Shown here: piece after piece, positions 2,181 to 58,861 of the stretch | How positions within the stretch are numbered: position 1 is the first letter of the stretch | How the letters are laid out: each line of letters begins with the position of its first letter | Assembly (NCBI GenBank): GCA_029775965.1 | Contig: JARVJU010000002.1 | Location: forward strand, 2,578-66,577 | Direction of reading: 5' to 3' | DNA from: Nitrososphaeria archaeon | GTDB lineage: Archaea > Thermoproteota > Nitrososphaeria > Conexivisphaerales > DTJL01 | Length of the DNA stretch: 64,000 nucleotides | Made by a program: the position numbers and the translations under genes | The notes under the pieces: model-generated | Database searches by the model: none | Told to the model about the DNA's origin: nothing | Seen by the model: the letters and a program-made list of their open reading frames with translations, nothing else

Positions 2181-4178
2181 ATGCTAGATTATCAGATAGT
2201 TTCTGCTGACAGGACTGAATCACTGGTTCTTGGTAAGCTATACCTGATACTCTTTATGGGTGAGGCTGGGCTAGGTGTGCCTTACACTGGTATATATTAT
2301 GATGATAACAGGTACGTAGATAGTTACTTGTTCAAGTACAAGGATTCAGTAATATCCCCACGGGTAATAGAGAAGAGCAATACGCAGATCAAATACGAAT
2401 ATGCAACTGCTGACGGCAAGATTATAAGGACTATTCACATGTTCTATGAGGGAATTGAAGAAAAGATTCAAGGTTCTTTTGTAAAGAATGTAGAACTTGA
2501 ACTACATCCAAAATATACAGATATTTTCTACGTAAGAAGTCTTCTATCAGGCGCTTCTGATGCTGAAAGATGGCTGAAGGATGTAACTTATCGTTTAAAC
2601 GTAAAAAAGAAAAGTGCTGAAATAGAAATTGATGGGTCTAAGAGAATACTGCTGGAGGCAGCGGAAATAACAAAAAGAAAGAACATTATTCTCAGACCCA
2701 GCCGGGATCAATCAAAAATTAGATTAATCTTCAGGAAGGTCAGGCAAAAAGAATCACTCCCTTTTCATATATACAAATGCTTTCCTAGACTTCTAGCTGA
2801 CGAAAAAAGGTTGGAATCTCTCTATAATAATTCTATCATCAACCTTTCTAACAGCATGGATTCTCCTTTTGAAGGTTCTTTTTTCCCGTTGAGTTCGATA
2901 CCTTGGTTTCATACAATATTTGGAAGAGATTCCACTATAACCTCTTTGCACACCTTACTCTTTAATCCGTCAATAGCCAAAAGCACGATAGCAAAGCTAG
3001 GAGTGCTGATAGGAAAGAGATTCGACAAGGCAACAGAAGAAGAGCCAGGAAAAATAATACACGAAAAGCGTTTTGGAGAAATCAGTGGTAGTGATCCTGT
3101 GCTAAAAGGATATTATGGCAGCGTAGATGCTACGCCGCTGTACGTCCTTACCTACACTAACTATATCAAATATCATCCCCAAGACAAGTCAGTCAAGGGG
3201 CAGGAACAAAATGTATTAGCTGCAGTCAGATGGATTAAAAACAAAGTCGGCTATCATGGGTTCCTCGGCTACAGTTCGCAAAGTATGCTAAGCAACCAAG
3301 CCTGGAAAGATTCTTGGGATTCGGTATCACACAAAGATGGAAGTCTGCCACCTCATCCTTTACATCTAGTCGAAGTGCAGGGATACGCAGCAAAGGCATT
3401 AGAAGAAGGTGCAAGTTTTGTTGCAGATGATAGAGAAAGGAGAGAATTAATCCGAACAGCGAAGACATTGTATTCAGAGATACAGAAGAAATACTGGTCA
3501 GACAGACTAGGTTATTTTGGTGAAGCAATTGATGGAGATGGTAGACTAACAGAGATAATCACCTCAAACCCTGGTCATCTTCTATGGCTGCAGGTGCTAA
3601 GCCCTGATTTTGCAAGGAAGGTTGCGAAAGTACTTACTGATCGAGATAAATTGAATTCTGGATACGGAGTTAAGACGATGGCATATGGTGAAGTTAGGCA
3701 TAATCCCATCTCATATCATAATGGCTCTATTTGGCCACATGATAACATGATAATTCTGAGCGGTCTTGCTAGGTATAATCTTCCTGAAGAATTCTCAGAG
3801 CTTTTCTTAGAGTTACTTGATTCGTACACCCAGCTTGGCCTAAATGGTATGCCAGAGCTGTTTACAGGAGAAAGGAGGGAAAGCATAAAGAGGCTAGCTC
3901 CGATGGGAGGTTTTCCTGTTGCTTGGTGCGACGCTGGAATATTCGGAATCATTCATTCTCTCCTTGGGATAGATATAAGGTACAATAATGTTTACAGTGT
4001 CAGAATTTCGCCACTTCTACCAGACTGGTTAAACAATATATCGGTGAAAGGGCTATATATTCTTGGTGGCAGACTCAATGTTGAGGCAAAGAGACAAGGC
4101 GAAAACATTTCCGTAAAATACAACTTTTCTGCTGAGCCACATGCCCCAGTTAAAGTAGAAACAGAGGATAGAATATAA
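2181..4178 (+). CDS. Amylo-alpha-1,6-glucosidase / glycogen debranching enzyme family protein (archaeal GDE_C type)
   Basis: 665 aa with motifs FHTIFGRDS, YYGSVDATPLY, QAWKDSWDS, VEVQGY and YHNGSIWPHDN, which are characteristic of the (alpha/alpha)6 GDE C-terminal domain family. Confidence 0.8.
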   Translation: MLDYQIVSADRTESLVLGKLYLILFMGEAGLGVPYTGIYYDDNRYVDSYLFKYKDSVISPRVIEKSNTQIKYEYATADGKIIRTIHMFYEGIEEKIQGSFVKNVELELHPKYTDIFYVRSLLSGASDAERWLKDVTYRLNVKKKSAEIEIDGSKRILLEAAEITKRKNIILRPSRDQSKIRLIFRKVRQKESLPFHIYKCFPRLLADEKRLESLYNNSIINLSNSMDSPFEGSFFPLSSIPWFHTIFGRDSTITSLHTLLFNPSIAKSTIAKLGVLIGKRFDKATEEEPGKIIHEKRFGEISGSDPVLKGYYGSVDATPLYVLTYTNYIKYHPQDKSVKGQEQNVLAAVRWIKNKVGYHGFLGYSSQSMLSNQAWKDSWDSVSHKDGSLPPHPLHLVEVQGYAAKALEEGASFVADDRERRELIRTAKTLYSEIQKKYWSDRLGYFGEAIDGDGRLTEIITSNPGHLLWLQVLSPDFARKVAKVLTDRDKLNSGYGVKTMAYGEVRHNPISYHNGSIWPHDNMIILSGLARYNLPEEFSELFLELLDSYTQLGLNGMPELFTGERRESIKRLAPMGGFPVAWCDAGIFGIIHSLLGIDIRYNNVYSVRISPLLPDWLNNISVKGLYILGGRLNVEAKRQGENISVKYNFSAEPHAPVKVETEDRI

Positions 4179-4397
4179 TGTCTTCATATCGAATCGATTG
4201 CCTATGTACCAAAAAAGTCTAAATTATCTGCTAGCAGAGTAATTAATGGAATATAGAATGGCAGTGCATTATATTCCAAAGAATTGTAGGAGCTAACAAA
4301 ATTGACTAACAATAGATGGTTTAACTGAACACCAACCACTAACGCATCAGAACCCATATTCAACATATTTATTACTTTCCTGAATCTATGATTCTGC

Positions 4398-5342
4398 ATG
4401 CTTCATCTGATACTTGACACGGATACAGCTGGAGACGATACAATAGCAATGCTGATGGCTCTGAGAGCTTCAAACGCAAAGCTAGAGGCAGTAACAATAA
4501 ACTGTGGGAACATAGATTTTGATCAACAGGTCGAGAACGCTCTTTATACAATTGAATTCGCAGGCATGTCTGGTAAAGTACCTGTCTATCCAGGAGCAAG
4601 GCACCCTTTACTTAAAGACTGGAAGACTGCTGAATATGTTCACGGCAGAGACGGGATGGGAAACTCTAATTTTCCCAGAGCTAAGCAAAGACCAGAGAAC
4701 AGGCATGCGGTTGATGCGATTATAGAGGCTGTAAACGCAAAGCCAGGTGAAATAACAATTGTGGAGATAGCCCCTATGACAAATTTAGCCATGGCTCTTA
4801 GAAAGGACCCTTCTATAGCTGATAAAGTAAAAGCTCTTTACTTTATGGGAGGGACTAATTATTATCAAGGAAACGTCACTCCAGCTGCTGAATTCAACAT
4901 CTGGGTCGATCCTGATGCTGCAAAGATTGTGCTGAATTCAGGAATACCAACAACCATGGTGGGGTGGGAAATATGTATGAGAAGTGGTCTCCTAGACAGG
5001 AAGGAATACACTGAAATTCAAAGATTCGGTACTAAGGAGAGTGAATTTTTCATGTCTGTTAACAGACAGGTCCTAAGGTTTATGAAAAGAGCGTACGGAT
5101 TAGATGCAATTACATGCCCTGACAGCATTACAATGGCTATAGTGCTTAATCCTTCTATAGTCAAGAGCATCAAGCAAAGGTATGTTGAGGTTGATAATGT
5201 AAGCGAGATATCAAGGGGAGCTACATGGATTGACGAGCTGATGATCCTTAAAAGAAGACCAAATGTGAATGTAGTATATGAAGCATCACACGCCGCCTTC
5301 AAAGATATGTTATCTAGACTGCTTATGGGAGAAAAGGTCTAA
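4398..5342 (+). CDS. Inosine/uridine-preferring nucleoside hydrolase
   Basis: 314 aa. The N-terminal aspartate cluster LILDTDTAGDD matches the DxDxxxDD fingerprint of IU-nucleoside hydrolases. Confidence 0.8.
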   Translation: MLHLILDTDTAGDDTIAMLMALRASNAKLEAVTINCGNIDFDQQVENALYTIEFAGMSGKVPVYPGARHPLLKDWKTAEYVHGRDGMGNSNFPRAKQRPENRHAVDAIIEAVNAKPGEITIVEIAPMTNLAMALRKDPSIADKVKALYFMGGTNYYQGNVTPAAEFNIWVDPDAAKIVLNSGIPTTMVGWEICMRSGLLDRKEYTEIQRFGTKESEFFMSVNRQVLRFMKRAYGLDAITCPDSITMAIVLNPSIVKSIKQRYVEVDNVSEISRGATWIDELMILKRRPNVNVVYEASHAAFKDMLSRLLMGEKV

Positions 5343-5614: not shown

Positions 5615-6013
5615 GGAAAAGTTGCGGAACGACTACCCTTCTTTTTCACAAATGATCCTGTAAGTCAGCTGTAGGTTACTGCAGATTGAGTGCAAGTTTA
5701 AGATAGGCCTTCATGGCTTGAAGAAATCATAGCAAGGATTGCGCTAGGGCATAACAGGTTTAAGTTTGATGTCCCATACGCTGCATCAGGGAATCAGGTG
5801 TATCAGGCGGTCAGTTTATTTGAACACTATTACCATTTCAACCATAACATCTATATAACGCTATGTCAAAAAGATTATAGGCGATGGATTCCGCCGGAGC
5901 CTGACGGCTCGAACCGCTCCATATGGAAGCTGATGAATCCTATCGAACACATGTAATGGTATGGTGTCAACAGTTGCCGATCCAGTTAACTGCCATATGG
6001 AGGCTGTCTGCCA

Positions 6014-6310
6014 GTGTTTAGACGATTAAGGAATTCATCTGACAAATCAATCCTTGCAGGACTATCTGGAGAGCAAGTTGTCCAGAGGGTCGAGCTCTAT
6101 GCTAAAATGCAGGAGCTTATTCAGCTTAAGAATAGGGTTGAATTTCTTGAGTCAGACCTGCCAAGGATGAAAGAACTCTACAGAAGGCTGACTATTATGA
6201 TTAAACAGGCAGAAGAAGATTACAAGTGGATGGAGGAAAGAATAGATTTTCTTGAAAACGAGAACAGAAGGCTTAGGGAACTTCTCTCATCGAGGCGGCA
6301 ACAAACATGA
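6014..6310 (+). CDS. Small coiled-coil protein, unknown function
   Basis: 98 aa with heptad-like charged and leucine-rich sequence (LIQLKNRVEFLESDLPRMKELYRRL...IDFLENENRRLRELL). Its stop overlaps the next start (ATGA). Confidence 0.4.
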   Translation: MFRRLRNSSDKSILAGLSGEQVVQRVELYAKMQELIQLKNRVEFLESDLPRMKELYRRLTIMIKQAEEDYKWMEERIDFLENENRRLRELLSSRRQQT

Positions 6311-6693
6311 TATCGCCGAAGATAAAGCTTACCCAAGAGCAGACACGAAGGGTTAAGCAGATAGCGGAAACGCTGAATATAGATGTATCACACCTGCTGG
6401 AAGTCGCATTGGAGGATACAGTAAACGATGAATCTGTGGAATTGGATAAAGAGATTTTGATCTTCTCAAAAAGGCTGTCGGATCTAACAAAAGAGCATGC
6501 TCCGTTAGCCTCAAAGGTTGCGTCATTGACCTTCAAGTACAGTCAGATACACAGTGCATGCGCCAATGATTCAATTCTTGTACTAGGCCTAGAAGCAGAG
6601 AAAAGAACTCTATGCAGAGTCCTAGGGATGGAGTATGACGATAGTTTGAAAAGTAAAGAAGAACGGATGTTCGGTAGATACCATTCTAGGTAA
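6307..6693 (+). CDS. Ribbon-helix-helix (CopG-like) DNA-binding protein with C-terminal extension
   Basis: The N-terminus KIKLTQEQTRRVKQIAETLNIDVSHLLEVALEDTV fits a beta-strand/helix/helix RHH pattern. The gene is translationally coupled to the upstream coiled-coil ORF. Confidence 0.4.
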   Translation: MISPKIKLTQEQTRRVKQIAETLNIDVSHLLEVALEDTVNDESVELDKEILIFSKRLSDLTKEHAPLASKVASLTFKYSQIHSACANDSILVLGLEAEKRTLCRVLGMEYDDSLKSKEERMFGRYHSR

Positions 6694-32075: not shown

Positions 32076-33302
32076 GTGATGAATGATCTTAAGGATAGGC
32101 TCTTCTGGATATCCACCGATAAAGAAATAAAGGATGCCATTGCTACAGATTATTATTTTCTGAATACGGAAAAAGCTCTCTTGAAGAGCGGGCTCAACCC
32201 AAAGGTTACGATGGAGGTATACGCTAGAAAGCTTCCCTATAAACAGCAGTGGGGGATTGTCTCTGGGATATATGAAGCTGCAAAGTTACTTGAAGGCCTC
32301 CCTGTAGACGTGGATGCCATGGAGGAGGGAACCCTTTTTGTCACACCAGAAGAAAATGCGGGTTACGAACCTGTAATGCAGATAAGGGGAAGATATGCAG
32401 TATTTGCCAGGTATGAAACACCACTTCTCGGCTTTATATCATCTGCAACTGGTTTTATCACCAAGGCAGCAAGAATAAGGCTAATGGCTGATGATAAGAC
32501 TTTGTTGAGTTTTGGAACAAGAAGGGCGCATCCTGCCCTTGCCCCCCTGATAGAAAGGAGTGCATACTTAGCTGGTTTCGACGGTGTTAGTAACGTAGCT
32601 GGCGCAAAGTTGCTTGGGATAAAAGGCTCAGGCACGATGCCTCATAGCTTCATACTTTGCTATCCAAGCCAAAAGGAAGCATGGAAGGCATTCCTCGAAG
32701 CAGCAGAAGAGAAGAAGATAATAGCTCTAACAGATACAATGTATGATGAAAAGGTTGAATCCTTAATGGCATATGAAACTCTGGGGAAGAATCTAGCAGG
32801 TGTAAGGCTGGACACCCCTTCCACAAGAAGAGGGGACTGGAGGAAGATTGTTCAGGAAGTGAGGTGGGAACTTGATCTCCATGGTGCAAAACACGTTAAG
32901 ATATTCATATCTGGCGGTCTGGACGAAGAAGAAATCGCTAGGATGAAGGATATAGTGGACGGTTTCGGCGTGGGAACAAGCGTAAGTTCTGCACCTGCTG
33001 TAGATTTCAACATGAAGCTTGTTGAAGTCGAACAGAATGGTAGGATGGTTCCGAAGGCAAAAAGGGGAGACCTCTCAGGAACAAAGTCACTTTACAGAGA
33101 TATGAAATCGCTTGAAGACTTTCTTACCCCTGCAGGTTTCCGGGCATCTTCGAACCTTACCCCTCTCTTAACACCCCTTATCAGAAACGGTAAGATAGTC
33201 AGGGAATTCTTGTCTATTGAAGAGATAAGAGAAAAAGTAAAGAGTTCACTAGATGCTGTAAGGCGTGGCATCCCTAAGCTCACAGTGATTTCTCGCGTCT
33301 AA
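32076..33302 (+). CDS. pncB: Nicotinate phosphoribosyltransferase (archaeal NAPRTase family)
   Basis: 408 aa with GTRRAHP and GVRLDTPS motifs. It is divergent from nadE, forming a NAD salvage pair. Confidence 0.8.
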   Translation: MMNDLKDRLFWISTDKEIKDAIATDYYFLNTEKALLKSGLNPKVTMEVYARKLPYKQQWGIVSGIYEAAKLLEGLPVDVDAMEEGTLFVTPEENAGYEPVMQIRGRYAVFARYETPLLGFISSATGFITKAARIRLMADDKTLLSFGTRRAHPALAPLIERSAYLAGFDGVSNVAGAKLLGIKGSGTMPHSFILCYPSQKEAWKAFLEAAEEKKIIALTDTMYDEKVESLMAYETLGKNLAGVRLDTPSTRRGDWRKIVQEVRWELDLHGAKHVKIFISGGLDEEEIARMKDIVDGFGVGTSVSSAPAVDFNMKLVEVEQNGRMVPKAKRGDLSGTKSLYRDMKSLEDFLTPAGFRASSNLTPLLTPLIRNGKIVREFLSIEEIREKVKSSLDAVRRGIPKLTVISRV

Positions 33303-35508
33303 CAATAAGCAAGAGCATGCTCAAAAAGCTGATGAAGATAGAGTAAAAGATTAGGGTTTTTCCTGCATACAAAGGAAAGGATATGCTATGCTGCATGGAT
33401 GGTATTTTAGTAGTATTTACATAAAAAAGGCCAAGCGCATAAGCATTACTTTCAGCATTATATACATGTACGGAGAGCTTGTAGAATCCTTGCTCTAACG
33501 GAGCTATTGAGGCTAAACTAATATTCTGCCCTTTGGCGACTGACACAAAGTACGTTGTACCATCAGGGAAAGTAACATTTGCCTGAGCCCTTACGTATTC
33601 AGGATACAGTATGCTTATCTCATAATTACTCTGATTAAAAGCAAGTCCAGCCTCAGAGGATACTACCGTTACAGGCAAAGTATAGTTCTGACTACCTACG
33701 CTGAATATCAACCTATCATAGTATGTCCCTGCCTTATCAGTAGGAGGGGCACTTACTAGAAGAGTAGCATTATCTTGTGTTATTATCTTCTCGCTTAAAG
33801 TCAATGGATAGGAACCAGTATAGTTCACTCTGACAACCACATTTTTCAGGAATTTTAACGCAAGGTCATAGTTATAACTACCATATGGAGATGGGAAGAG
33901 TATAAGATAGTCTCCATTCTCTGTGGTAAATGGAATATCAAGTGCCTTTGTTATATTCAGCTCACCTGCTCCTTGCACGTAGAAAGGAAGGGAATAATTG
34001 TCAGCCATTATAGGCGTTGCAGAAAGTGCAATTATAGCATAGCTTTCGATTGGCGTTAGATATGGGTATTCTTGCTTAAGTAGAGCCAAAGTACCAGACA
34101 CTTGAGGTGTAGAAAAGCTTGTACCGGACAGAAGCTGAACACCATTAGGTGTTATTGCTGGTACCGCGTCCCCAGGTGCAAGAAGTTCAGGCTTCATTAC
34201 ATATTCATTCACTGGACCCCTTGATGAGAAGTAGGCTGGAAAAACAGTTGAATTGGCCTGAAATACATCCAGTCTAGCCGTGTAGCTTGCATTGCTAACA
34301 GCTAGAAATGCTCCATCTTGCCATGAAACCGTCAGTACGGGTATTCTTGGCTTATAATTGGGCTGGAATGGGTTTGTCAGGTTAGCAAGAAGGCTTGAAT
34401 TAAAGTTATTTACTATGATAAGAGCCTTTGCTCCTGCAGCTGCAGCATTAGCTTCCATGACACCAAAATATGTCTGTTCATTTCTCAATGCTACAGCTAT
34501 GTATCCTGTTAAGTTTGATTGTATAACTTGGCTAGCATTTCCTATGTATACTGTCTTTCCTTCTATCGGAGAGGCTGATACAGGCGAGTCTGCAGCTGGC
34601 ACAGCTGATTGCAGCATGGTTCCGTTAACGATAAGCCATCCAGAAGTGCCGTTAGAATAAATACTCGTCGATGCGCCCACAGCAAAATAGCCTCTCAAAT
34701 CTGCAGGTGCTGAAACTGTGTAGGTGTCAGGCCCTTCGTTGCCTACTGCAGCTACAATTTCTATCCCCTGCTGGGATAGCATGTACGCTATCTGTTGGAG
34801 CTGCACATCTTCTGCAGCTCCACCAAGGCTGAGGTTAATTATCTGAGCACCATTACTTGCTGCCATATCTATGGCCTGAATAAGCAGGGAGAGAGTAGTC
34901 TCGCCATTCTGAAAGACTTTGTAAGCAAGTATCCTTGCACCAGGTGCTACACCAACAAAACTGCTTGAATTGGCTGCAATTATAGATGCAACTGCAGTGC
35001 CGTGCCCTTCCGTGTCCATAGGATTTGGAGAGTTGTCGACAAGGTTATAGCCTCCTATCACCTTTCTGCCAAGTTCTCCTCCAAGTGCTGATAGAGTATA
35101 ATCTACCCCTGTATCTATAACTGCTATTGTTACGTTTCTGCCTGTATACTTTCCGCCGTAAAAGTAGCTCCAGTTTCCTGTGAATTGAACACCTGCTCCC
35201 TGTTGCAGAAGAATAATGGAATCATCCATTATAAGCTCAGGATGAAATACATTCTCAACCATAGATAGAGCTGTGCTCGTCATGGAAAATTCACCACCAA
35301 CTGCTATATCTTTGAATAGATAGACTGTGTTAAAGGTAATTCCATGCTGTCTCATCTGTTCAGCGAAGTTTGTAGAAAGGGCAGCTGTAAAGGCACCATC
35401 ACCTTTTGATAGCATTATGATATAGGTGTTTGCTTGCTGGCCTACCTGCGGTACGATGACTGGTGAAATAATAAGTAACAAAATAAAAGAAGATAGACAG
35501 ATATTCAA
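33280..35508 (-). CDS. Secreted, membrane-anchored subtilisin-like serine protease (S8) with PA-domain insert
   Basis: Signal peptide and the catalytic triad contexts VIDTGVDY (Asp), GHGTAVASII (His) and SGTSFSTPQVSG (Ser). A PA-like insert (AAGAKALIIVNNF) and a C-terminal TM helix are present. By hand count there are at least 21 N-x-S/T sequons. Confidence 0.85.
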   Translation of the reverse strand: MNICLSSFILLLIISPVIVPQVGQQANTYIIMLSKGDGAFTAALSTNFAEQMRQHGITFNTVYLFKDIAVGGEFSMTSTALSMVENVFHPELIMDDSIILLQQGAGVQFTGNWSYFYGGKYTGRNVTIAVIDTGVDYTLSALGGELGRKVIGGYNLVDNSPNPMDTEGHGTAVASIIAANSSSFVGVAPGARILAYKVFQNGETTLSLLIQAIDMAASNGAQIINLSLGGAAEDVQLQQIAYMLSQQGIEIVAAVGNEGPDTYTVSAPADLRGYFAVGASTSIYSNGTSGWLIVNGTMLQSAVPAADSPVSASPIEGKTVYIGNASQVIQSNLTGYIAVALRNEQTYFGVMEANAAAAGAKALIIVNNFNSSLLANLTNPFQPNYKPRIPVLTVSWQDGAFLAVSNASYTARLDVFQANSTVFPAYFSSRGPVNEYVMKPELLAPGDAVPAITPNGVQLLSGTSFSTPQVSGTLALLKQEYPYLTPIESYAIIALSATPIMADNYSLPFYVQGAGELNITKALDIPFTTENGDYLILFPSPYGSYNYDLALKFLKNVVVRVNYTGSYPLTLSEKIITQDNATLLVSAPPTDKAGTYYDRLIFSVGSQNYTLPVTVVSSEAGLAFNQSNYEISILYPEYVRAQANVTFPDGTTYFVSVAKGQNISLASIAPLEQGFYKLSVHVYNAESNAYALGLFYVNTTKIPSMQHSISFPLYAGKTLIFYSIFISFLSMLLLIVRREKSL

Positions 35509-49384: not shown

Positions 49385-50242
49385 TTGAGTTACCCAAGCC
49401 AAGTAAGGAAGATACTTGAAGATATAAAAAATGACAGAATTAGCGGTTCGACGTCTCTTGCGCTAAAGGGGCTCGAAGCCCTAAAGGTATTTGCAAAGCA
49501 GTATACTGATGATAGAAATACAGCATTATTATTAGCAAAAGAACTTGTATCTTTAAGGCCAACATTTGTGGCTATAACGAACGTCATCAGCGAAGCAGTT
49601 TCCTCGTATCTGTCAGGTTCTTCTTCTCTTTTAGATGAGGCAGAGAGGCTGCAGAATAAAGTTATAGATGCTAAAAGTAAAATAGCATATGAATTCTCAA
49701 AAGTTTTGGGAAGGAGAGAAAAAGTATCAGTTCTGACAATCAGCAACAGTAGTTCTGTCAGCAAAGCGATAAAGGATAATTCAGACAGGATATCATCCGT
49801 TTTTGTATGTGAAAGCAGACCTGGGGGAGAAGGGGAGATGCTGGTTGAAGAGTTAAATTCTTCACATATAAGATCTTATCTTATTCCTGATCTTGCTGCT
49901 GAAAGCATGATAAAGCAGGTTGATTTCATAGTTATAGGCTCGGATGTGATTTACGAAGATGGAAGCATAGTAAATAAACTGGGCTCCAGCACTCTAACAA
50001 AGCTGGCATCCTTGGATGGGAAGAGGGTGTACGTCTTAGCTGAATCATTCAAGGTATGCCCGAAGGGGCATAGTATAACACTTGAGTTCTATGACAAAGA
50101 CAAAGCTATACCTATGTTCGATATTACACCTCTTACCTATTCTCAAGTGATACTTAGTGATAAAGGTATTTTGGGGAAGAAGGATATAGCATCATTAGCT
50201 AAAAGATATGCTAGCTATCTAGCTAATATTATGAATCGCTGA
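49385..50242 (+). CDS. eIF-2B alpha/beta/delta-family protein (sugar-phosphate isomerase-like)
   Basis: VDFIVIGSDVIYEDGSIVNKLGSSTLTKLASLDGKRVYVLAESFKV is the hallmark C-terminal region of the family. Confidence 0.7.
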   Translation: MSYPSQVRKILEDIKNDRISGSTSLALKGLEALKVFAKQYTDDRNTALLLAKELVSLRPTFVAITNVISEAVSSYLSGSSSLLDEAERLQNKVIDAKSKIAYEFSKVLGRREKVSVLTISNSSSVSKAIKDNSDRISSVFVCESRPGGEGEMLVEELNSSHIRSYLIPDLAAESMIKQVDFIVIGSDVIYEDGSIVNKLGSSTLTKLASLDGKRVYVLAESFKVCPKGHSITLEFYDKDKAIPMFDITPLTYSQVILSDKGILGKKDIASLAKRYASYLANIMNR

Positions 50243-53200
50243 CAGTATTTCTCATACCTTCTTTTCTCGGGTCGCCCGGCCACCAGTTCAACCTTTTTGC
50301 AAGTATCATTATGGAAGGTACAAAGGCAAGCCATACTATGAACGTATCTGACAATATGCCTATAGCTAGAGTTATGCCAATTTGCTGCAGCAGTCTGATA
50401 GAGCTGAGGCCTAATGCTAGGAAGACAGATGATAAAATAAATCCAAGGGCAGCTATAACGCCTGCTGTACTCTCAGATGTTCTAATTAGAGACTCTTCAT
50501 CAGTCAATCCTTTAGAGGCTTCTTCTCTTACTCTTACTATAAGAAAGATATCATAATCCATCCCTAAGCCCAGCATCGTCGTTACAAGAAATAAAGGTGC
50601 GAAGACGAATACAGATGAACCACCTATCTTGTAAAAGATAAGCCATACAAAGAAGACAGTCCAAGCAACACTAGCTAATATTGTTGATATAAGCCTTAAG
50701 GGTGTAAAAACAGACCTGAGCTGGAAGAAAAGTACCACGAATATGGCAGCTACCAGTGTCAGAACTATCTTCGGTAAAACCTCAAAGACATAGTTAAGAA
50801 CAGCCTTTGAATCTAGAGAGCCGCCACCAACGTAAGCCTTGTAACCGTATGGTATGAATGAACCTATTGTGTTACTTAGGTTCTGAGCCTCATTGAGAAC
50901 CCTGTTGCTGTATGGATCGCCAGAAAACTGCACCTTATAGTAGACTGAAGAATTATCTCTTGATATATACCCAGCCATAGATGCAGCATAAATACTTCTT
51001 TCATGACTTGGAAGTGAATTTATGGTATCAGCTGGAATAGAGGTCGAATTGTACGGTGAGGTGGGGCCATACACTGCAGCAACACCTTCATATTCTCTTA
51101 TTGACTGAGCTATATTGCTAAGTGCCATAAGCTCAGTTTCATTGAATGTGTTATTTGCAAAGGATATTTTTGCTGGCAATGACACAACAACATAAGTTGG
51201 AGTAAGAATGTTCCCTCCAAAGTTGTTTGTTATCTGGTCCAGCCCTTCCTTTGCTGTACTTTCAGGTGTAAGACCCAGTATGTTTATGTTTACAGGCAAG
51301 GTTAGAGCGATCGCTGAACTGATAGCTGTAAAGATCAAAAGCAACGAAAGAATAGTCTTTGGCCTAGCTATAGCTTTCTTCGTTATCCGAGCTAATCGAG
51401 ATTTATTATAGCTGAAATTCTTTTTTGGCCAGAATATTTTTTCGCCAAAGAGATGCATCAAGGAGGGTAAAAGAGTGAGAGAAGATGCTAATACAGACGA
51501 GACCATTATTATGTTCGCAGAACCAACGTCGCTGAAAAGGGGTATTCCTGCCAGAGATAGAACGATGTATGAGAGAACTACAGTTATGCCACTTGTGAAG
51601 ACAGCCTCTCCCGCCCATCTGGTGGAAAGCTTTACTCCAACAGTCTTTCCTCTTTTCATCTCCTGTCTGAACCTGTTCAGAAGCAGAACACTATAATCTG
51701 TTATAAGACCTAGTGCAAGTATCAGAATCACTAGAGGGCTGATAAAGCTAAGACTTTGACCCTGGAGTCTTCCTATGACAATATCGATTAAACCGAATCC
51801 AACAACTGCGCTTATACCAAAGAGAAGCATGGGAAGAAAGGCAGCAACAGGCGACATAAAGAACAGACCTGTTATGAGAACTGCAGCAGCTATCCCCGCT
51901 GGTAGAGCAACCCTCTCGCTTGATGTAACTATGGATTGAAGCTGAGACTCTATTATTGGACCAGATGTATAGTATGTTTTGAACTCAGGCGAATTAAATG
52001 ACTCCACGACATACTCCATCTTGCTTGTAGCTTCATCTGTTGGCTTGGACGCAAAGGTTAGAGTGATTATTGTGGCATTGTTGTATTTGTCTACGTACTG
52101 GCTTACTATACCGCTAATAGGCATGACTGGCATATCTTTCATAGGCAAGCTGCTGAGAAGATGGTAAGCTGTAACGTTACTTTGCATTACCTGATGTAGC
52201 AAGCTAGCCAATGCGCTTTCGTTCACCACAAAAAGTGGGTTTTGAGATAAGGAGCTCTTTATAGCCTTGTAAGAGATCTCAAAAGTATAGCTACTGAGCA
52301 GAGTAGAGTTCTGTGGATAGCCTATATCGTAAGCCTTAGATATAAAGTCGATAAGTGATTCGTTTAGATCTTTACTTATATTATTTACCACGGAGAGGTT
52401 GTTATTTACAAGCTGAGTATACGCTAGGGAAATTGTCAGATTCCTTAGAGCTAATTGATCTGCAGGATAACCGATCGATGCGATAGAATTGACAAATTGT
52501 GTCGCGTCAAGTCCAAAGTTTTTCTGTAACTGAGCCTGCTCAGCCTCGGGCATGTGATCCGCTATGAAGCTTATTGCAAGTTGCAATTCTGAGCTTGTGC
52601 TTGCATTTTGGCCAAGGTTATAGACAGAGGTTAGCAATTGTATGTAGCTATCATCTACACCCTGACCCGTCATGTTTGCGAAAAGAGATACGATATACTT
52701 CTTAGTTAAGGTTGAATTTAAAGGGTAGCCAAGTCTTTGAACCTGTATCATAAAAGAGTATGGATCTTGCCCGAGATTCTTTATTGCATTAGTAAGGTTG
52801 TCAGGCATTGCATTAGCAGCTATAGATGCTGTTTCCTGCTCTAGCATTGAGGAATTTGGAGGGTAGCCCAGTTGGAATGCATAAAGAACCAGTCTGTAAG
52901 GAGACATATTAAGCTCGCTCTCTATTGTAAGCTGAGGAAGCTTTGAAGCTACAAGGTTAAGCACAAAGGCATCTAGGCTTGAAGATTGGTTTGCGCTGAA
53001 CGCTGAGGTAACGAATTCTGATTCAGTTGGAGTCATGTTTGCCGTTATTGTCTGCAGAGCAAAGTTATCAAGCACAGTAGAATTTGGTTCTGCCCCTAGG
53101 TTAAAGACATTAAAGACAAACTGTTTTTGCTGAACCGACTGATTTGCTGTAACAATGCCTAGCGCTGTGCCATCTATAAGAGATTCATTGTTGAAGTCAG

Positions 53201-54287
53201 TTAGATTAAGGTTGTTTAATACAGCGATAAAAATTGATGCTTCCTGCTGACTAAGATTACTTATGAACTGCGGAGCACTAGAGTTTATTGCATCTTCTGC
53301 AAGGTAAATCGATTGGGAATTGACAAAGGAAGGGCTCTGGTTAAAGGTAAGCTGATACCATTTTGCATAAAATAGTCGATAATATAGATAGGACTGAGGC
53401 TGCTGAGCTATTACTGATGAATAGCTCAGATTTGCCATTGTATCCAAGCTGGATGAATTAAGATTAGAGTAATTAGGGTTAGAGTATATCTGCTTCCAAG
53501 TTGATATGTATCCATAAGGAACCCCATAGATCAGCTGTGCTGTACCATTAAGCGCATAGATAAGGGAATAGACTTGGTAACTCGTTTCATTGGCAACTGA
53601 CGCAAGGCTATAAACAGAATTTACAGCTTGTTCAGCTTGATTAAGAAGACTGTAGGTCTCAGAATTTAGAGATGTAAGGTTCTCTGCTATATAGTGTGCG
53701 AACAAAGAGGTTGAGTTCACAAATTCCTTGACTTTATACATATCAGAATTTAGGGAAGAGATATTCTGAGCTAAAGTGTTTACAGCTTTATCAGTATAGG
53801 TAATGTTATCCTTAAGCTTCTGCAAGGCAAAGGCTGTATCATTCAGATAATTTTTTGTCGTATTAGTCAGCTGACTGCTGCCGTTGATGATAGAATTTAG
53901 AACTCTGAGCTCAAGGGAATATATGGATGTCTGGTTTTTAAGACCTAGCGATGCCAGAGCTTGAAATAGGCTTGAGTTCAGCAAGTATACACGCTGGTAA
54001 AATTGCGGTGAAAGCACATCAGCCCCTTCAAGTATTACATAAACTGTAGAATTTGAGCCTGAATTGCCTGTGAAGTTCTCGGATATCATGTTCTGGGCTT
54101 GGATGGATTCCTTATCCGATGCAGGTATACTGACGGAATACGATATGATCCCTTGTGATACAGCTGCAAAAGGTGCTGTGAGGGCCAGCAGGATAACCCA
54201 TACTACTAGAATAATCTTCCACCTTCGAGCCAGAAAGGCAGAGTATGACTCAAAGTGCTGGCTCAGGGACATCCGAATCTCCAACAT
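50229..54287 (-). CDS. MMPL/RND-superfamily membrane protein with giant glycosylation-rich first ectodomain
   Basis: 1352 aa. One N-terminal TM helix is followed by a ~750-aa extracytoplasmic region, a 5-6 TM bundle (LGLITDYSVLLLNRFRQE), a second loop of about 220 aa and a second bundle (GLGMDYDIFLIVRVREE). These are MMPL-type motifs. Confidence 0.75.
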   Translation of the reverse strand: MLEIRMSLSQHFESYSAFLARRWKIILVVWVILLALTAPFAAVSQGIISYSVSIPASDKESIQAQNMISENFTGNSGSNSTVYVILEGADVLSPQFYQRVYLLNSSLFQALASLGLKNQTSIYSLELRVLNSIINGSSQLTNTTKNYLNDTAFALQKLKDNITYTDKAVNTLAQNISSLNSDMYKVKEFVNSTSLFAHYIAENLTSLNSETYSLLNQAEQAVNSVYSLASVANETSYQVYSLIYALNGTAQLIYGVPYGYISTWKQIYSNPNYSNLNSSSLDTMANLSYSSVIAQQPQSYLYYRLFYAKWYQLTFNQSPSFVNSQSIYLAEDAINSSAPQFISNLSQQEASIFIAVLNNLNLTDFNNESLIDGTALGIVTANQSVQQKQFVFNVFNLGAEPNSTVLDNFALQTITANMTPTESEFVTSAFSANQSSSLDAFVLNLVASKLPQLTIESELNMSPYRLVLYAFQLGYPPNSSMLEQETASIAANAMPDNLTNAIKNLGQDPYSFMIQVQRLGYPLNSTLTKKYIVSLFANMTGQGVDDSYIQLLTSVYNLGQNASTSSELQLAISFIADHMPEAEQAQLQKNFGLDATQFVNSIASIGYPADQLALRNLTISLAYTQLVNNNLSVVNNISKDLNESLIDFISKAYDIGYPQNSTLLSSYTFEISYKAIKSSLSQNPLFVVNESALASLLHQVMQSNVTAYHLLSSLPMKDMPVMPISGIVSQYVDKYNNATIITLTFASKPTDEATSKMEYVVESFNSPEFKTYYTSGPIIESQLQSIVTSSERVALPAGIAAAVLITGLFFMSPVAAFLPMLLFGISAVVGFGLIDIVIGRLQGQSLSFISPLVILILALGLITDYSVLLLNRFRQEMKRGKTVGVKLSTRWAGEAVFTSGITVVLSYIVLSLAGIPLFSDVGSANIIMVSSVLASSLTLLPSLMHLFGEKIFWPKKNFSYNKSRLARITKKAIARPKTILSLLLIFTAISSAIALTLPVNINILGLTPESTAKEGLDQITNNFGGNILTPTYVVVSLPAKISFANNTFNETELMALSNIAQSIREYEGVAAVYGPTSPYNSTSIPADTINSLPSHERSIYAASMAGYISRDNSSVYYKVQFSGDPYSNRVLNEAQNLSNTIGSFIPYGYKAYVGGGSLDSKAVLNYVFEVLPKIVLTLVAAIFVVLFFQLRSVFTPLRLISTILASVAWTVFFVWLIFYKIGGSSVFVFAPLFLVTTMLGLGMDYDIFLIVRVREEASKGLTDEESLIRTSESTAGVIAALGFILSSVFLALGLSSIRLLQQIGITLAIGILSDTFIVWLAFVPSIMILAKRLNWWPGDPRKEGMRNTVSDS
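52248..53135 (-). repeat. Protein-level tandem repeats (~40-50 aa units) inside the MMPL ectodomain
   Basis: Anchors NLGAEPNST, QLGYPPNSS, RLGYPLNST, NLGQNASTS, SIGYPADQL and DIGYPQNST lie at about aa 397, 473, 519, 558, 605 and 655, each followed by a helical segment (hand alignment). Confidence 0.6.
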
Positions 54288-57625: not shown

Positions 57626-58861
57626 TTGATGTTGACACCACTGGGCTACTTTTTTGCTATACTGGGTACTATGCTATCTGTATACACAGCCTACTGGGGT
57701 CTTTTACTTGTGGCTGGAGGAATAACGATAAGGAAGGATAGGAAAACCTGGAAGAACAGTGCAGCGAGGCCTAGAGTTTCTATCATAATACCTGCAAAAA
57801 ACGAGGAGAAGGTGATAGGCAGATTGCTAGCCTCCCTGCAGACTATCAACTATGATAAGGATAAAGTTGAGATCATAGTCTCTGAGAGTGGTTCAACAGA
57901 CCATACGGTTGATGTTGTGATGGACTTCTGCAAACAGGATAAGAGAATAAGGCTGGTGCGCTCTGGGGCAGTTGGAAAGGGCAATGCATTGAATGAAGCA
58001 ATAAAATATGCTACAGGAGAACTCTTTTTCTTCACTGATGCGGATTGCGTTCCTGAAAACGACTTTCTTGTCAAGGCTGCTGCCATGTACGCGGCAAACG
58101 TACATTCCATGGTTGGCTACCCAAAGACGATAAACTCAGGTCAGAATATCCTTACCAAGCTTGCAATTTTTGAGGACTTAATATGGAGGATTATGTCTGT
58201 AGGTAGAGATAGGCTTGGGCTCTCGGTACCTCTAGCTGGCCCATATTGTGTAATCAGCAGAAAGGCTCTATGTAGTGTGGGATTCGAATTCCGGGATGTA
58301 CTGACTGAGGATATAGAGCTCTGGGCAAGACTTCTAAAAAATGGGTATGTAACTCGTTACATAGATGCCTTCGTCTGGCAGGAGGCTCCATCTCGTCTAA
58401 CAACTCTTATCAGACAAAGGATAAGGTGGTATAGAGGTTATATGGAGACTGGTTTACATCATATTGATATTTTTAAAAGGACAGATCTGGCAAAGGCAAC
58501 TGATGCTCTCCTAATGCTTTCAACCCCCTTCTTCGCTATGCTGTCTATATTTTCTTATTTTATATCATGGTTCAGTTTACCCGACCTAGCCTCAAGCCTT
58601 GGTATAGTCCTGTTCGTAGCTGTCTTCTTCGGAGCCAATATACTAGGCTTTATTGCGCTTAATGCAGGGCTTGTTTATTTTGCAGGCAAGGATGCTCTGG
58701 GTTTACTGAAGATAAGCCCATTTGTATACCTCTATTTCATAGTCTTAGGGATATCAAGCTCTCTTGCTATTCTGCATCTGATAACAAGGAGGCATGCCAT
58801 ATACAACAGAACTGAAAAGACAGGTTACTCTGACATGTCATTCCTACAGCAGAAACGGTGA
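57626..58861 (+). CDS. Family 2 glycosyltransferase, membrane-integrated, processive type
   Basis: SIIIPAKNEE, the DAD motif (FFTDADCVP), TEDIEL, and Q(R/Q)xRW as QRIRWYRG. An N-terminal TM helix and a C-terminal TM bundle are present. Confidence 0.8.
   Translation: MMLTPLGYFFAILGTMLSVYTAYWGLLLVAGGITIRKDRKTWKNSAARPRVSIIIPAKNEEKVIGRLLASLQTINYDKDKVEIIVSESGSTDHTVDVVMDFCKQDKRIRLVRSGAVGKGNALNEAIKYATGELFFFTDADCVPENDFLVKAAAMYAANVHSMVGYPKTINSGQNILTKLAIFEDLIWRIMSVGRDRLGLSVPLAGPYCVISRKALCSVGFEFRDVLTEDIELWARLLKNGYVTRYIDAFVWQEAPSRLTTLIRQRIRWYRGYMETGLHHIDIFKRTDLAKATDALLMLSTPFFAMLSIFSYFISWFSLPDLASSLGIVLFVAVFFGANILGFIALNAGLVYFAGKDALGLLKISPFVYLYFIVLGISSSLAILHLITRRHAIYNRTEKTGYSDMSFLQQKR

Follow-up and report, generated by a model that had tools for sequence, protein, structure and literature searches.

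The 64,000-nucleotide stretch analysed here (the window; contig JARVJU010000002.1, from a Nitrososphaeria archaeon) encodes on its minus strand, at 50229-54287, a transporter of the MMPL family whose first periplasmic domain (PD1) is interrupted by a very long helical insert, rich in N-glycosylation sequons and composed in part of tandem repeats. The architecture of this insert is real, family-wide and undescribed; the gene itself has already been deposited under a generic name, and a literature search brought up no account of an archaeal MMPL protein that has an insert of this kind. In the reading that we favour, to which we give somewhat better than an even chance, the protein is an active exporter in which the insert would form a modular, glycosylated and envelope-spanning rod, acting as a stalk or guide for a hydrophobic substrate.

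By every defining feature that could be checked, the protein belongs to the MMPL family. Pfam MMPL (PF03176) matches it with 246.7 bits (E 3.9e-73, cut-off 20.5) in two stretches that correspond to both halves of the protein, and hydropathy, alignment and the helix layout of a model of the homologue P0011 give 12 transmembrane (TM) helices, TM1 and TM7 each being followed by a large extracytoplasmic domain. An earlier sequence-only reading of the window had proposed an MMPL-type protein with two family motifs and a giant first loop, and both motifs are in place, LITDYSVLLLNRFRQE at aa 861-876 in TM4 and GLGMDYDIFLIVRVREE at aa 1240-1256 in TM10. The Asp-Tyr relay pairs that they contain, D864-Y865 and D1244-Y1245, align with the TM4 and TM10 motifs of MmpL4; D864, Y865, D1244, Y1245 and D1246 are invariant in 15 aligned family members, and every family-invariant TM residue is kept. 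The top matches among PDB sequences are MmpL4 and MmpL5 (E ~1e-31). Scores against two NCBIfam models lie below their cut-offs, at 210.3 versus 874.7 for TIGR00833 (the actII MMPL subfamily) and 116.4 versus 351.9 for TIGR00921 (HAE3). Judged from the intact relay motifs and core, the core is most likely a working proton-driven exporter. The same reading had also suggested a transporter-anchored, S-layer-like structure, which is disfavoured, since the retention of the relay motifs and of the family-invariant TM residues argues for an active pump and not for a mere anchor. The transporter part of the gene is laid out as follows.

50229-54287, minus strand: whole gene, MMPL/RND transporter, 1352 aa (open reading frame, Pfam, NCBI match; the NCBI start is at 54272).
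54156-54224, minus strand: TM1 (aa 22-44), preceded by a basic cytoplasmic N-terminus (hydropathy, alignment).
53925-54155, minus strand: N-terminal part of the PD1 core (aa 45-121; alignment; alpha-beta-alpha-beta in the homologue model).
51903-52238, minus strand: C-terminal part of the PD1 core (aa 684-795), beginning at the conserved PLF.VN strand (alignment, homologue model).
51453-51902, minus strand: TM2-TM6 bundle (aa 796-945), with the TM4 motif LITDYSVLLLNRFRQE at 51660-51707 and Asp864-Tyr865.
50793-51275, minus strand: periplasmic domain 2 (PD2; aa 1005-1165), of ordinary size and without insertion, with five sequons (hydropathy, alignment, homologue model).
50286-50792, minus strand: TM8-TM12 bundle (aa 1166-1334), with the TM10 motif GLGMDYDIFLIVRVREE at 50520-50570 and Asp1244-Tyr1245-Asp1246.

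The deposited protein ("MAG: MMPL family transporter [Nitrososphaerota archaeon]", 1347 aa) is 100% identical to the window protein and starts five codons downstream. The first ATG (54273-54287) would give MLEIRMSLSQ..., the NCBI model uses the second Met (MSLSQ...), and the finding is unaffected by the choice. A pseudogene or a fusion artefact was considered and rejected, given the intact open reading frame, its identity to the NCBI protein and four relatives of 1189-1361 aa that align over the full length of the window protein.

Loop 1 extends from aa 45 to 795, between TM1 at ~aa 22-44 and the following TM helix at ~aa 796 (hydropathy), and contains exactly 39 N-[^P]-[ST] sequons (46 in the entire protein), so that the boundaries and the hand count given in the sequence-only reading both stand. 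Composition-preserving shuffles of the loop, in which Ser (13.8%), Leu (11.5%) and Asn (9.3%) are frequent, gave 13.8±3.2 sequons, and none of 2000 attained 39. The density of 5.2 per 100 aa is 2.8 times the composition expectation, ~16 times that of ten neighbouring cytoplasmic proteins of the window (0.33 per 100 aa) and almost twice that of a secreted subtilase encoded there (2.8). Sequons were not enriched in loop 2 or in the TM and cytoplasmic parts of the protein, and this restricted distribution favours an extracellular position of the loop. The subtilase used for comparison (33280-35508, minus strand; 742 aa, Peptidase_S8 and PA domains, a hydrophobic N-terminus and 21 sequons) is, from these features, probably a second extracellular N-glycosylated protein of the window. 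A density so far above shuffles, cytoplasmic neighbours and subtilase alike is what one would expect if the ectodomain were chiefly a glycan-display or S-layer-like scaffold, in which the repeats present N-glycans and the MMPL core is mainly a membrane anchor. We regard this explanation as quite unlikely. Dense sequons are common among archaeal surface proteins in general, and the transporter motifs, all intact and invariant, are not what a membrane anchor would call for; the repeats themselves also speak against it, as set out below.

The six repeat anchors occur at the places where they had been aligned by hand, with their Gly residues at aa 398, 474, 520, 559, 606 and 656. The units stand in register, are ~46 aa long and follow the rough consensus (N/D)..P..F[IV]..V..[LI]-G-Y-P-x-N-S-T-L..Y...L....M[PT]; the sequon Asn lies at Gly+4 in four of the six and at Gly+2 in one.

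52950-53165, minus strand: repeat unit 1 with extra helices (aa 375-446; NLGAEPNST, Gly398; window scan, hidden Markov model (HMM), relatives).
52806-52949, minus strand: repeat unit 2 (aa 447-494; QLGYPPNSS, Gly474; window scan, HMM, relatives).
52668-52805, minus strand: repeat unit 3 (aa 495-540; RLGYPLNST, Gly520; window scan, relatives).
52530-52667, minus strand: repeat unit 4 (aa 541-586; NLGQNASTS, Gly559; scoring 28 bits with the family repeat HMM), the orthologue of unit two in the common 1085-aa type of the family.
52386-52529, minus strand: repeat unit 5 (aa 587-634; SIGYPADQL, Gly606; turn without sequon; window scan, HMM, relatives).
52239-52385, minus strand: repeat unit 6 (aa 635-683; DIGYPQNST, Gly656; window scan, HMM, relatives).

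Motif-centred windows being a biased sample, the repeats were tested by Smith-Waterman comparison of every pair of non-overlapping 48-aa windows of the loop, with 60 shuffles for reference. The top local score was 70, against shuffle maxima of 43±4.8 (the highest of the 60 being 60), and 185 pairs scored at least 40, where the shuffles had 9.3 on average and never more than 54. When repeat units of homologues alone were used to build an HMM, it gave same-register matches at five of the six anchors, of which only aa 546-576 was strong alone (28 bits). Unit 4 was also the one unit of the window protein detected by an iterated family repeat HMM under strict thresholds, the 'GYP' units being a divergent subtype common to P0047 and P0051, and BLASTP of the loop against itself returned the identity match alone. 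It could be supposed that the repeats arose by chance from low-complexity, Ser/Asn/Leu-rich sequence, given the biased composition of the loop and the weakness of single units against the family HMM. However, shuffles never match the observed self-similarity, the positions of the units are conserved in distant relatives and the module recurs in 102 family proteins, so that this explanation is refuted. In the sequence databases the repeat corresponds to no described domain: 14 ectodomains gave only chance coiled-coil matches in Pfam (E>=0.02) and matched no S-layer family, the best match of the insert to PDB sequence profiles had an E of 0.89, and NCBIfam gave no match.

The repeat is not peculiar to the window protein but is common to an archaeal MMPL clade, in one to six copies per protein. 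An exhaustive HMMER search with an ectodomain profile (E<=1e-3) matched 204 clusters among 1.84 billion cluster representatives, which makes this a small family. The search with the ectodomain alone retrieved MMPL proteins of ~1030-1095 aa with a large loop and only two repeat units. Host genomes (species representatives) are mostly soil and peat Bathyarchaeia, together with Nitrososphaerales/Nitrososphaeria and Conexivisphaerales, and more distant family members are labelled Thermoplasmata or Thermoplasmatota. The window protein falls into a subfamily with P0045, P0047, P0052 and P0067 (1189-1361 aa; ~30% identity), and all six units are found at matching positions in three of these four relatives (P0045, P0047 and P0052). 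Since the units keep their positions in relatives of such low identity, the expansion must be old, and recent tandem duplication is ruled out. The module also occurs in very different members, such as P0131, P0161, P0051 and P0130.

Comparison across the family separates what the repeat conserves from what it does not. Of 162 repeat units from 102 proteins, 96% have the turn Gly and 87% a Pro no more than four residues away, but only 40% have a sequon. Sequons have been gained and lost between orthologous units of ~30%-identical relatives, and Lys/Glu-rich members such as P0161 keep the repeats without a sequon in the detected turns. The earlier proposal that several sequons sit at the same position in each repeat is supported for the window protein, with Gly+4 in four of six units. 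The scaffold explanation can draw on this regular Gly+4 placement and on the conserved sequon held by the distal motif described below. But a turn sequon that is present in only 40% of units, and that wanders, makes N-glycan display unlikely as the primary role of the repeat.

Two further observations concern the distribution of the family. In several Bathyarchaeia, pairs of long-loop MMPL paralogues occupy separate chromosomal places (L019/L039, L020/L035, L031/L037, L047/L058 and L046/L051). In the Thermoplasmata-type members P0048, P0063, P0082 and P0119 (1340-1536 aa) a different part of the insert is expanded, with tandem [LIV][YF]G.P..[YF] motifs resembling the tip and helical repeats of ~100 aa of the form 'Y..F...W ... 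N.T.W', with up to nine matched stretches in P0048. Apparently, different lineages have extended the rod with modules of at least two kinds.

A first idea of the fold comes from a homologue. AlphaFold modelling of the window ectodomain from an alignment of 14 sequences gave an all-alpha model of low confidence (pLDDT 44.7), which was not used for fold searching, and a five-sequence subfamily profile found only one match in a word-index homology search. Because no deeper alignment of the six-repeat subfamily could be obtained, a typical 1088-aa member, P0011 (31% identical to the window protein), was modelled instead with AlphaFold2 from 100 sequences (pLDDT 93.4, pTM 0.78). Foldseek aligned ~640 of the 1088 columns of this model with the core of MmpL4, MmpL5 and MmpL3 (E ~5e-27; TM-score 0.72 on the MmpL4 target), leaving the insert without a counterpart, and a search of BFVD viral structures gave nothing significant (best E 0.2). 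The P0011 insert sits in PD1 between strands 116-120 and 408-410. It begins with one unbroken helix (residues 122-199, 78 aa; DSSP) that is followed by ~10 short helices, and the repeat consists of helix A (9-11 aa), a G-x-x-P(S/N) turn and helix B (16-19 aa), as in H324-334/H340-355 and H367-375/H383-401. By the order of elements in the model, the insertion site would be the pseudo-symmetric equivalent of the short PD2 helices 822-842 and presumably, from the residue ranges of MmpL5, of the position that the coiled coil takes in that protein.

The helical character that had been suspected for the N-terminal half of the loop is borne out, and this half can be divided into a long heptad segment, here called the spine, a conserved far end, and the first, non-repeat part of a return segment.

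53523-53924, minus strand: spine (aa 122-255), 133 residues in one heptad register (heptad analysis; the P0011 equivalent has 63+15 residues, helix 122-199).
53496-53552, minus strand: LNGTAQLIYGVPYGYISTW (aa 246-264), the far spine end, with the sequon NGT here and NQT in most members (alignment, conservation).
53166-53522, minus strand: non-repeat helical return part (aa 256-374), with a conserved Y..F...W motif (alignment, homologue model, conservation).

Hydrophobic residues occupy 17 of 19 a-positions and 12 of 19 d-positions of the spine, which has no Pro and almost no Gly, and the Asn residues of all nine spine sequons fall at the two heptad positions flanking 'a', on the exposed side. 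The heptad phase is likewise unbroken in P0045, P0047, P0052, P0067 and P0051, and at most two of 2000 shuffles attain the observed class bias. The most conserved 15-aa ectodomain window in 100 sequences is NQTAQLIYGVPAVFV, for which the window protein has LNGTAQLIYGVP; a separate search for related loci selected the same distal stretch as its pattern.

The lengths of the two parts are coupled. In an alignment of 100 sequences, the S.Y.E anchor and the YG[IV]P motif were taken as the limits of the spine, and YGVP and the PLF.[IV]N strand as those of the return. Spine lengths form a main series of 35, 49, 63, 77, 91, 105 and 133 aa, in steps of 14, beside off-series lengths of 31, 53, 56, 59-60, 65, 81 and 100-101 aa. 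Spine and return lengths correlate with r=0.98 and a slope of 2.8 in the 37 proteins of the clade that keep both anchors, and with r=0.97 and a slope of 2.7 over ten length classes, values that are without phylogenetic correction and are carried by about four to six independent length changes. From this co-scaling, one module would comprise ~14 spine residues (two heptads) and one return unit of ~42 aa. The window protein and its three closest relatives have a spine of 133 and a return of 428-442 residues, against 63 and 220 in the common type, which puts the window protein five modules beyond the common 1085-aa type. The helical N-terminal half and the repeats are thus two parts of one architecture whose lengths co-vary. 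The rise of an alpha helix is ~0.15 nm per residue. If the helix is continuous as in the P0011 model, a 133-residue spine would measure ~20 nm, compared with ~9 nm for the 63 residues of the common type.

On this basis, the mechanism that we favour can be outlined. A proton-motive-force-driven MMPL exporter would move a hydrophobic or amphiphilic envelope component, and the PD1 insertion would form an elongated, all-helical and heavily N-glycosylated rod around one long helix (aa 122 to ~269). From its far end, short helices would lead the chain back towards the membrane, the final six units of this return being the ~46-aa helix-Gly-x-x-Pro-loop-helix repeats. Each module may add ~2 nm, so that five extra modules would give a rod of ~20 nm instead of ~10 nm. 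This length could bring the conserved distal NxTAQLIYGVP...W end to the outer envelope layer, S-layer or glycocalyx, and the rod may serve as a stalk, guide or conduit that hands off the substrate, as a counterpart of the MmpL4/MmpL5 coiled coil. The S-layer or glycocalyx of archaea lies ~10-30 nm from the membrane.

Another possibility is that the rod is mainly an oligomerisation device, in which three (or two) protomers join their spines in a parallel coiled coil or tube for the substrate, with the repeats outside. A hydrophobic stripe confined to a- and d-positions, as kept here over 9-19 heptads, is a usual mark of coiled coils, MmpL5 is a trimer whose coiled coils build a tube (PMC12501195), and PMC12183618 states in its title that a coiled-coil domain triggers MmpL10 oligomerisation. 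Nevertheless, we consider this unlikely. In the monomer model the spine and the helices that surround it have pLDDT values >90, suggesting that the chain itself satisfies the a/d face; return and spine lengths scale 3:1, as expected if the return covers the spine; and no MmpS-like partner was found at the loci. It could also be that the spine is an antiparallel hairpin as in MmpL4 and MmpL5, which would make the rod half as long and the repeats a separate domain near the membrane, with a role in substrate capture or in binding an extracellular polymer. This we judge improbable, no less so than the scaffold explanation. The steps of 14 would correspond to one heptad per arm, and the helix is interrupted near aa 177-195 in the low-confidence model of the window ectodomain. 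Yet the high-confidence P0011 model is unbroken from 122 to 199, the heptad phase runs continuously from end to end in six members, the spine lacks Pro and nearly lacks Gly, and a 3:1 co-scaling of spine and return is hard to explain for spatially separate parts.

Several points weigh against the reading of the insert as an envelope-spanning rod. The steps of 14 would also fit a hairpin of half the length, and the breaks in the poor model of the window ectodomain fall within the spine; the continuous single helix of the window protein would follow from the P0011 model. The length coupling goes back to few independent changes, as said above. The geometry of the rod was derived from the secondary-structure string, confidence values and length statistics, not from coordinates, and its three-dimensional form, its contact with an outer layer and its oligomeric state would all follow from these. 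Glycosylation is predicted from sequons alone. No conserved operon partner, lipid-synthesis gene or MmpS-like gene that would hint at a substrate was found among 69 loci, and the host is an uncultured organism whose envelope is undescribed.

The closest known systems are MmpL4 and MmpL5, the mycobacterial siderophore and drug exporters (PDB 9b43, 9dp6, 8zkp and 9syt), which are the top matches in structure (Foldseek E ~1e-26) as they are in sequence. They share with the window protein the 12-TM MMPL core, the Asp-Tyr relay and a long helical extension that follows the second strand in one of the periplasmic domains. The extension of MmpL5 is a PD2 coiled coil of 196 aa that forms a periplasmic tube of ~13 nm; efflux requires it, its tip is conserved, and it is proposed to pass the substrate to an outer partner (PMC12501195). 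In the window protein, by contrast, the insert lies in PD1, is 590 aa long as compared with 196 aa, varies in module number within its family and is dense in sequons, whereas PD2 has 161 aa and no insert. Instead of a hairpin, the P0011 model has a long single helix and a return of helix-turn-helix modules; no MmpS-like neighbour was found, and the host is an archaeon without a mycomembrane. The window protein is therefore outside the MmpL4/MmpL5 coiled-coil subclass, and by analogy it plausibly works like it. MmpL3, the trehalose monomycolate exporter, has the MMPL core fold and the Asp-Tyr pairs in common with it but differs in its two compact periplasmic domains, its cytoplasmic C-terminal domain and the lack of a periplasmic extension. 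The HpnN/HAE3-type RND lipid transporters (TIGR00921; PDB 5khn) share the RND architecture (NCBIfam 116 bits, Foldseek E ~3e-13), with a score far under the cut-off and without a comparable insert. The membrane-anchored coiled-coil stalks of archaeal S-layers, such as SlaB of the Sulfolobales, are long, glycosylated and helical, with a reach on the scale of the pseudo-periplasm; no relationship in sequence to them was found, and SlaB is a single-pass anchor that has no transporter part and no modular helix-turn-helix return.

The genes around the MMPL gene have housekeeping functions: a class I/II aminotransferase-family (PLP) enzyme, IF-2B-like and GalT-like proteins, deoxyhypusine synthase, ThiN, a GT2 glycosyltransferase and CysRS. 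At its 3' end the MMPL gene overlaps the 3' end of the convergent IF-2B-like gene (49385-50242, plus strand) by 14 nt (50229-50242). Clustering of the neighbourhoods of the 69 loci revealed only lineage-specific synteny (amino-acid kinase, nitroreductase, DUF429, hydantoinase), and no gene family was common to the window and the 68 related loci, except for GT2 in five loci. The membrane-type GT2 glycosyltransferase of the window lies at 57626-58861 (plus strand), 3.3 kb from the MMPL gene, and five other genomes (L020, L039, L048, L049 and L059, at ~3300-4650) have GT2 homologues 1-2.5 kb upstream of their family MMPL gene. Either shared synteny or a weak functional connection with glycosylation or lipid-linked sugars could lie behind this proximity. 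Elsewhere in the window, a fluoride riboswitch is found at 5871-5949 (plus strand; Rfam RF01734, 38.5 bits, over the gathering score), directly upstream of two small overlapping open reading frames (6014-6310 and 6307-6693) whose sizes fit a candidate CrcB pair.

A broader possibility, which we put forward tentatively, is that this archaeal clade arrived independently at an envelope-spanning device, a rigid and glycan-coated helical rod in PD1 that grows by ~2 nm with each module added and docks through its conserved tip to the S-layer or glycocalyx. Should the rod be merely a decorated loop, the finding would shrink to an unusually large and heavily glycosylated MMPL paralogue. In mycobacteria, the role of the periplasmic coiled coil of MmpL4 and MmpL5 was shown only recently, and the archaeal extension is much larger, modular and located in the pseudo-symmetric domain. 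The helix-Gly-x-x-Pro-helix module and the NxTAQLIYGVP tip merit domain-family definitions of their own, and, with spines of 35 to 133 residues, these abundant soil and sediment archaea offer a natural series of 'molecular rulers'. How archaea bring lipids and other hydrophobic compounds out of the membrane and to the S-layer, or across it, is essentially unexplained, and the clade is a concrete candidate for such a route. If the proposal is true, these proteins would be the first described trans-envelope lipid or hydrophobe exporters of monoderm archaea, with a rod length matched to the envelope width of each lineage.

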